A stretch of DNA of 64,000 bases from Escherichia coli. GTDB lineage: Bacteria > Pseudomonadota > Gammaproteobacteria > Enterobacterales > Enterobacteriaceae. Every line of letters starts with the position of its first letter. Position 1 is the stretch's first letter. This document shows, piece by piece, positions 54,188 through 54,690 of this stretch. Made by a program: the position numbers and the translations under genes. The notes beneath the pieces were generated by a model that did not search any database, was not told the DNA's origin, and saw nothing but the letters and a program-made list of their open reading frames with translations. The stretch is from NCBI RefSeq assembly GCF_046105845.1, contig NZ_CP151004.1; one strand, written 5' to 3'.

Positions 54188-54395
54188 ACATCGCTCCTTT
54201 GCACTTGAATGATCTGCGAATCATAAGCCTGGCAAAATGGGGAATCTTACAGAAATCGCTCATTTTTAACTTTTCGCACAGTAAACTCAGGATAACCCGG
54301 TTGTGAAAGTTTGCTGCTGCACCGCTCTAAACAGACTGGTGATCAATCTTTCTATCAATAAGCAGAAATGAGCGATTTTTGATAGTTTATTGGAA

Positions 54396-54690
54396 ATGCT
54401 AAAGATATACGGTAATGAAACGACTGCACACTTTATTTTGCTTAGGGAGATAGTCGGATAAACTATAGACAATGAAAATAATAAAATCAGGGACAGAATC
54501 AAGCTAATACTAAATCACATATCTCATAATAATTTTCCAGATGATGAACAAACACTTTATGCAATAGCATGTTTATTCCAGACTTTCCCAGAATTTGTTT
54601 ATGAATATCAACCAATGTTATTAACAATAATTCAGATTGCAAGAAGAAATAATTTCATTGCCATTTTAAATACACTAGATAGATCATAAA
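54396..54690 (+). pseudogene. Candidate small ORF (about 98 codons) interrupted by one in-frame TAA at 54459-54461; possible pseudogene or remnant
   Basis: ATG at 54396, frame open to TAA at 54688-54690 except a single TAA; the 76-codon segment after the stop has no ATG/GTG/TTG until near its end; AT-rich, Lys/Asn/Ile-rich. Confidence 0.3.

Follow-up and report, generated by a model that had tools for sequence, protein, structure and literature searches.

Short ORFs antisense to coding frames have been described as genes in EHEC O157:H7, namely ano, laoB and pop (PMC5960689, PMC5810103, PMC7103648), and in the accessible portions of two of these reports the antisense and overlapping genes of this serotype are backed by RNA-seq or Ribo-seq signals (PMC5960689, PMC5810103). 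Three other described systems are close to a small hydrophobic ORF in a disrupted E. coli locus: the antisense shadow ORFs that lie opposite real genes, the pseudogenes left by deletion between short repeats, and the type I toxins of the Hok, Ldr, Ibs and ShoB families. Typical members of these toxin families are shorter than 71 aa. The ORF that we studied, 71 aa long, lies upstream of espX2, which is ECs0876 on S-loop 57 of O157 Sakai (PMC2323221). The literature found on EspX2, ECs0876 and WP_000551719 (a protein encoded next to EspX2 in some strains) consists of virulence-gene inventories only, with none on the intergenic region upstream of espX2.

We analysed a stretch of 64,000 nucleotides of E. 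coli DNA (hereafter the window), in which an AT-rich island corresponding to S-loop 57 lies between dinG (49741-51891, minus strand) and rhlE (54795-56156, minus strand). The island is 2.8 kb long and has a GC content of 0.28-0.39, compared with about 0.51 for the window. It is absent from K-12, which carries a ybiA-containing segment of 737 bp in its place; the window is homologous to K-12 up to 51986 and again from 54794, at the stop codon of rhlE (54795). Among 5,426 complete E. coli genomes, 541 carry the island. When one genome per species was scanned for an outgroup, a DNA pattern for the island found nothing, and an EspX2 peptide found a single fragment in which the upstream region was absent. 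This fragment is a 1.8-kb contig binned as 'uncultured Clostridium sp.' (locus L017, CAKVEW010000088.1) that encodes EspX2 residues 168-670 at 95% identity, and it is almost certainly a mis-binned piece of E. coli DNA. Judged from these scans, the island appears to be confined to E. coli.

The island gene espX2 encodes 670 aa and is named as a type III secretion effector gene in most RefSeq records. EspX2 scored 57.3 bits against Pfam SopA_C (cutoff 25), and with the SopA-like domain and the RefSeq name it is a predicted SopA-like type III effector, known here from its sequence. Its score against the NCBIfam model of HECT-type E3 effectors was 83 bits, far below the cutoff of 500, and thus EspX2 falls outside that subfamily. 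In strain 14EC033 (L008, deleted form of the locus as defined below) espX2 is annotated as a pseudogene with an internal stop; the effector gene also appears to be decaying in some lineages. Between espX2 and dinG, RefSeq annotates in E7-1N7 a 92-aa minus-strand 'hypothetical protein' that overlaps the dinG start (L001 1340-1618, equivalent to window 51869-52147). The window version of this protein is only 68 aa long (51869-52075). The mechanically called dinG ORF runs to a GTG at 52029 (762 aa), while the annotated DinG start corresponds to window position 51891.

The 71-aa ORF starts with TTG on the minus strand and its translation opens MILSLILLFSLSIVYPTISL... Its stop codon is at 54287-54289 and espX2 starts at 54187, which leaves a gap of 99 bp. 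A sequence-only reading of this DNA had reported the ORF with coordinates, strand, start codon, length and translation identical to those in the ORF listing, had placed its end 99 bp upstream of the 670-aa gene, had called its N-terminus TM-like and had seen no convincing ribosome-binding site; all of these descriptions hold. Strong hydrophobicity marks its first 19-20 residues (Kyte-Doolittle mean 2.1), and the GRAVY of the whole protein is 1.04. The ORF is not longer than chance would allow. When 607-bp sequences were randomised under a Markov-1 model to match the composition of the intergenic stretch, 17% contained an ORF of 71 aa or more (P = 0.17), and the 64-kb window contains 177 ORFs of this size. 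The features of the locus are collected in Table 1.

Table 1. Features of the island and of the region between espX2 and rhlE, in window coordinates.
Feature	Position	Strand	Basis or remark
AT-rich island (S-loop 57 of O157 Sakai), absent from K-12	51987..54793		K-12 comparison
espX2, type III secretion effector gene, 670 aa, SopA-like C-terminal domain	52175..54187	-	RefSeq naming in most records; Pfam
45-aa ATG ORF, overlaps first 62 nt of espX2 out of frame	54126..54263	-	ORF listing
Shine-Dalgarno AAGGAG of espX2, 6 nt before ATG	54194..54199	-	anti-SD pairing
71-aa ORF	54287..54502	-	TTG start; chimeric frame across deletion junction, judged non-coding
ORF residues 42-71 and stop, in the former espX2/orf561 divergent intergenic region	54287..54377	-	alignment
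1-bp (C) indel polymorphism	54293..54294		haplotype comparison
Deletion junction, sole remaining copy of the 10-bp direct repeat TTTGATAGTT	54378..54387		alignment to intact-form genomes
orf561 3' remnant, pseudogene fragment (codons 459-561 and stop)	54378..54689	+	alignment to intact alleles; in frame with the intact 3' end
ORF part entirely antisense to the orf561 remnant (residues 1-41 when the junction repeat is included)	54388..54502	-	alignment
TAC to TAA nonsense substitution in the orf561 remnant	54459..54461	+	sampled-locus comparison
Terminator-like hairpin and T-run, between rhlE and the ORF	54713..54739	-	sequence scan
Second hairpin, directly after the rhlE stop	~54754-54787		by eye

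In many genomes that carry the island, its match to the window is split by about 1.5 kb, and the extra DNA completes a 1,686-bp plus-strand CDS. This CDS (orf561) encodes a 'hypothetical protein' of 561 aa (WP_000551719 and relatives; 31% GC) and is divergent from espX2, with a 304-bp intergenic region between the two genes. It is annotated at full length in AST20, N3, Res13, 2012C-4221, O166:H15 and AF39, and one example of the intact allele lies at 3962-5647 of locus L002. Using a short query across the ORF, we found the 216-bp ORF region contiguous in 381 of the 541 island-bearing complete genomes (deleted form) and split, with an annotated 561-aa CDS between the two parts, in about 154-160 of the 541 (intact form). 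The deleted form includes the window, O157:H7 EDL933 and Sakai, O145:H28 and IAI39.

The deleted form is without 1,487 bp that lie between two 10-bp direct repeats, TTTGATAGTT. When the window was aligned with the intact AST20 allele, the two matched up to one copy of the repeat, and the alignment resumed at the second copy 1,487 bp on. Of the 11 intact alleles that were checked, nine had both copies, at a distance of 1,487 bp (in one allele 1,486 bp). The deletion took away 103 bp upstream of orf561 together with its codons 1-458, and the remnant of the gene is in frame with the intact 3' end. The polymorphism of the S-loop 57 island is now described precisely: about 30% of the carriers have an intact orf561 and about 70% have the 1,487-bp repeat-mediated deletion.

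The same junction was found on several different flanking haplotypes. The deleted-form left flanks (264 bp) in the locus pairs L009/L011 and L014/L022, which include two deleted-form loci, were identical to intact-form flanks (haplotypes h6 and h12), and in a neighbour-joining tree of the flanks the deleted and intact forms were interspersed. Since one junction occurs on several flanks, some of them identical over 264 bp to those of the intact form, these comparisons imply either recurrent deletion at the 10-bp repeats or spread of the deletion by recombination.

Six full-length alleles of orf561 gave pN/pS of 0.11-0.25 with pS up to 0.11, and where it is intact, orf561 is a real gene under purifying selection. 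A word-indexed protein search returned only its own cluster, and an exhaustive HMMER search of 1.84 billion representatives returned only eight E. coli fragments with 76-98% identity. Searches against Pfam, NCBIfam, PHROGs and PADLOC gave nothing significant, a sequence search of the PDB gave no matches, and BLASTP detected no similarity to EspX2. A single-sequence AlphaFold model of the protein was all-helical with low confidence (pLDDT 60). A likeness of this model to HEAT/ARM solenoids was considered and judged uninformative, as Foldseek against the PDB returned only generic matches (TM <=0.34, none with E <=0.001). In these searches orf561 is an orphan gene restricted to E. coli; it is under selection and adjoins the gene of a type III effector. 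We consider it improbable that orf561 is an unrecognised type III effector or a partner of EspX2 whose repeated loss (e.g., in O157:H7 and O145:H28) was adaptive, in which case the junction ORF could be a newborn translated peptide.

In the deleted form, the orf561 remnant is decaying. Three different nonsense mutations were found in the remnants of deleted-form loci, one shared by the window and strain 19KM1831, one in MFDS1019527 and one in a metagenome locus (L031), and none was found in the intact-form loci that reach this region. The mutation of the window, which changes TAC to TAA, was seen only in the window and 19KM1831 among the sampled loci; the rest have TAC (Tyr). The remnant therefore has what is seen in pseudogenes made by deletion: an intact allele elsewhere, a junction explained by a repeat, and secondary inactivating mutations. 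Some strains with an orf561 region of full size, such as ETEC4075 (L015 2762-4447), have two annotated CDSs of 246 bp and 1,296 bp in place of one, and this split indicates an independent inactivation by a different mutation.

The position of the junction divides the 71-aa ORF into two parts of different origin. Codons 1-41 are antisense to orf561 codons, and the third codon positions of the two frames coincide. In this register, stop codons on the antisense strand arise only from sense TTA, CTA and TCA codons. There are 48 such codons among the 562 of orf561, and stop-free antisense runs extend up to 38 codons. The hydrophobic N-terminus of the ORF (LILSLILLFSLSIVYPTISL) lies opposite the sense peptide ...REIVGYTIDNENNKIRDRIK, and the plus-frame peptide opposite the N-terminus (...TIDNENNKIRDRIK) is rich in Asn, Lys, Asp and Glu. 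The hydrophobicity mirrors the composition of the sense peptide. Codons 42-71 (KIAHFCLLIERL...TGLS and stop) occupy DNA that used to be intergenic, at 100-190 nt from espX2 on its upstream side. Since these codons were joined to the rest only at the junction, the 71-aa product was impossible before the deletion.

Intact-form genomes have the same TTG and the same first 41 residues, which there belong to a 45-aa shadow ORF ending in ...NKLSNSDA and a stop. This version, with its different C-terminus, was found in all 11 intact-form loci that cover the region, opposite a real frame and with shared third positions, as is expected of an antisense shadow ORF. The deleted form was represented by 16 loci (the window, nine RefSeq genomes and six metagenome contigs), and in these the ORF was 71 aa long in seven, 125 aa in eight and 111 aa in one. 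The length difference comes from the C indel near the end of the ORF. Haplotypes with the extra C read on to 125 (or 111) aa into the start of espX2, and those without it, like the window, stop at a TGA after 71 aa. The 45-aa ATG ORF that overlaps the espX2 start is the downstream half of the 125-aa frame of the extra-C strains, and no evidence for it as a gene was found. Its ATG at 54263 is without a Shine-Dalgarno sequence. Judging from identity bands and match lengths, the 71-aa version would be expected in only about 23 of the 381 deleted-form complete genomes, and the 358 deleted-form genomes in the 90-95% identity band, O157:H7 included, would carry the C indel. A frame with lengths of 71, 125, 111 and 45 aa is thus not conserved in the way of a bona fide gene. 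Every locus examined had an undamaged TTG and first 41 codons, which would be explained by selection on orf561 or by how recently the gene was lost.

We conclude that the 71-aa ORF is very probably a non-functional, accidental chimeric frame over a deletion scar and not a gene. The ancestral island between dinG and rhlE carried espX2 (minus strand) and orf561 (plus strand) as divergent genes 304 bp apart. The deletion of 1,487 bp between the 10-bp direct repeats, whose junction is described above, truncated orf561; it is of a kind typical for replication slippage or illegitimate recombination, and one of these may have been its mechanism. It fused the antisense strand of the orf561 3' remnant, where a 45-codon shadow frame with shared third positions was already present, to the former intergenic region next to espX2. 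Where one C is missing at 54293/54294, as in the minority haplotype of the window, the frame made by this fusion runs for 71 codons to a TGA.

This origin agrees with much of the sequence-only reading, which had recognised that the ORF is antisense to a broken plus-strand frame, now seen to be the 3' remnant of a 561-aa gene, and had warned that shadow ORFs arise easily opposite Lys/Asn-rich coding sequence; the N-terminus does face an Asn/Lys/Asp/Glu-rich peptide with coinciding third positions. It had also expected only one of the two frames, or neither, to be real. The plus frame was historically real, as the pN/pS of the intact alleles shows, and neither is functional here. In the window the plus frame is non-functional because it is a truncated remnant with a nonsense mutation, and neither strand encodes a functional product at the ORF and remnant. 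Two elements are functional in 54188-54794: the 5' region of espX2, including the ribosome-binding site, and the region of the rhlE terminator.

Signals for expression of the ORF were sought in the surrounding sequence. No Shine-Dalgarno sequence was found: the best anti-SD duplex in the 22 nt upstream of the TTG was -2.7 kcal/mol and misplaced, compared with -7.9 for espX2, -7.2 for rhlE and a local background median of -1.5 kcal/mol. The ORF is thus without a well-spaced Shine-Dalgarno sequence and without a strong start codon. A consensus scan of 54000-54900 detected no sigma-70-like promoter on the minus strand. Two hairpins lie between rhlE and the ORF (Table 1), and therefore read-through from rhlE into the ORF is unlikely. 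In Rfam, 54100-54900 had no match at E <=1.

Annotation and homology searches gave a similar picture. Among the matches listed, none of 42 deleted-form RefSeq records has an annotation under the ORF match. In a search of 5.8 billion proteins, the 71-aa product had no full-length homologue, and the sole matches were two sporadic gene calls from E. coli, one with a single member and one with 9. In both calls the match is confined to the intergenic-derived C-terminal half, in the frame of the 125-aa variant, and the hydrophobic N-terminus is missing. No family was found in Pfam, NCBIfam, PHROG or PADLOC, and thus the ORF has neither homologues nor a family. In a catalogue based on Ribo-seq of O157:H7 Sakai, none of the 465 translated intergenic ORFs lies at Sakai 9546xx-9551xx (PMC5597208). 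The variant present in Sakai is the 125-aa one; because of its overlap with espX2 it may have been left out of a catalogue limited to intergenic ORFs, and the growth conditions may also have kept the island silent.

Substitution patterns were examined separately in the two parts of the ORF. In the overlap with the orf561 remnant there were eight variable sites, which gave six synonymous and two non-synonymous changes in the minus frame and four of each in the plus frame, with little resolving power as third positions are shared. One of the four plus-frame non-synonymous changes is the nonsense mutation of the window itself. Strand-specific dN/dS in the overlap was dropped as a discriminator because both frames share third codon positions.

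In the intergenic-derived half, 15 sequences gave a pairwise pN/pS of 0.17 in the ORF frame versus 0.95 and 2.99 in the other minus frames. In this value a small number of tightly linked differences that separate two haplotypes, most of them at 54277-54342, are counted many times. We enlarged the sample with 15 metagenome loci, which gave 23 distinct left-flank haplotypes. These had seven synonymous and nine non-synonymous changes where 23-30% synonymous were expected (one-sided P = 0.05-0.19, uncorrected for the choice of frame). The 3-periodicity of this half, considered as a coding signal, shrank to this non-significant split, which may be taken as a weak hint only and not as evidence of purifying selection on the ORF. 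The non-synonymous changes in the ORF include G69R/W, T67I, T65N, C47S, I36S and C25Y. The DNA upstream of espX2 also contains a hypervariable patch (54277-54342), with about 14 differences and the 1-bp indel in 65 bp that separate two haplotype groups, between which there are mosaics. The segments 54343-54391 and 54188-54276 beside it are nearly invariant, and the variable sites in the patch are mildly enriched at every third base. The patch could be an imported recombination patch.

Three further readings of the ORF were weighed, and even taken together they are unlikely. The one that survives best, itself very improbable, is that only the intergenic half matters, as an older small upstream ORF or leader that overlaps the espX2 start and tunes espX2 translation. 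Its frame would be the 86-codon stop-to-stop frame of the extra-C haplotypes (LSKIAHF...GAGF and stop), of which the window version would be a frameshifted derivative. The two sporadic gene calls (P0002 and P0003) cover this frame, and variable sites are mildly enriched at third positions, with 6 of 11 in 54296-54391 and 13 of 24 overall by hand count (P ~0.03). However, the enrichment weakened to the 7:9 split when 23 haplotypes were used, and the tight linkage of the variable sites in two haplotypes agrees with the import of one patch. Moreover, the C indel breaks the frame in those 11 of the sampled loci that are without the extra C (four of them intact-form, including strain N3), and the frame is truncated in strain MFDS, has an internal ATG (54263) without a Shine-Dalgarno sequence, and is unannotated in every intact-form genome fetched.

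A slightly more remote reading is that the deletion made a young de novo gene. Lineages with the deleted form would translate it weakly, and a function could be emerging, as has been proposed for antisense overlapping genes of EHEC. AT-rich horizontally acquired DNA often has spurious promoters, which would favour such a gene. No deleted-form locus has a closed frame (lengths of 71-125 aa), and translated antisense ORFs are known in E. coli O157:H7, as stated in the accessible portions of two reports (PMC5960689, PMC7103648). However, the ORF has no Shine-Dalgarno sequence or promoter-like site and a hairpin lies upstream of it, the 1-bp indel alters more than 40% of the product between lineages, and the ORF is not among the translated intergenic ORFs listed for Sakai (PMC5597208).

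Equally remote is the suggestion of the sequence-only reading that the ORF encodes a small membrane protein co-transcribed with espX2 as a two-gene operon: it is co-directional with espX2 at a distance of 99 bp, has a hydrophobic, TM-like N-terminus and is open in 16 of 16 deleted-form loci, but it spans the deletion junction and was absent before the deletion, its C-terminus differs among strains (71, 111 and 125 aa, and 45 aa in the intact form), it has a TTG start with no Shine-Dalgarno sequence, no promoter-like site and a terminator-like hairpin upstream, it is unannotated in the deleted-form records among the matches listed and has no full-length homologue, and it carries non-synonymous changes such as G69R/W, T67I, C47S, I36S and C25Y.

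With the accidental chimeric frame as the preferred explanation, we see no case for annotating the 71-aa ORF or for pursuing it as a partner of EspX2. A convincing small membrane-protein ORF beside a virulence gene can arise purely from a deletion that fuses a shadow frame to intergenic DNA. Like ano, laoB and pop of EHEC O157:H7, as far as these are described in the accessible portions of the reports (PMC5960689, PMC5810103, PMC7103648), it is a short ORF antisense to a coding frame in the same species. The likeness is in geometry only, as the 71-aa ORF is outside the Sakai list of translated intergenic ORFs and its length is not conserved. With the type I toxins it shares a small, hydrophobic product and an intergenic location in E. 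coli. It differs from them in that the locus matches no Rfam family, a set that would include antitoxin RNAs and toxin mRNA elements, and no Pfam or NCBIfam family, and in its origin at a deletion junction.

The closest likenesses are to the other two systems. As in pseudogenes made by deletion between short repeats, one 10-bp copy remains at the junction where intact alleles have two copies 1,487 bp apart, and the remnant is in frame and has acquired secondary nonsense mutations; here, in contrast, the same junction occurs on several flanking haplotypes. As in antisense shadow ORFs, residues 1-41 are exactly antisense to orf561 with shared third positions, and the Phe/Leu/Ile/Ser-rich product mirrors the sense peptide. 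Unlike in those ORFs, the sense gene is truncated here, and the deletion prolongs the shadow frame by 30 codons into unrelated intergenic DNA.
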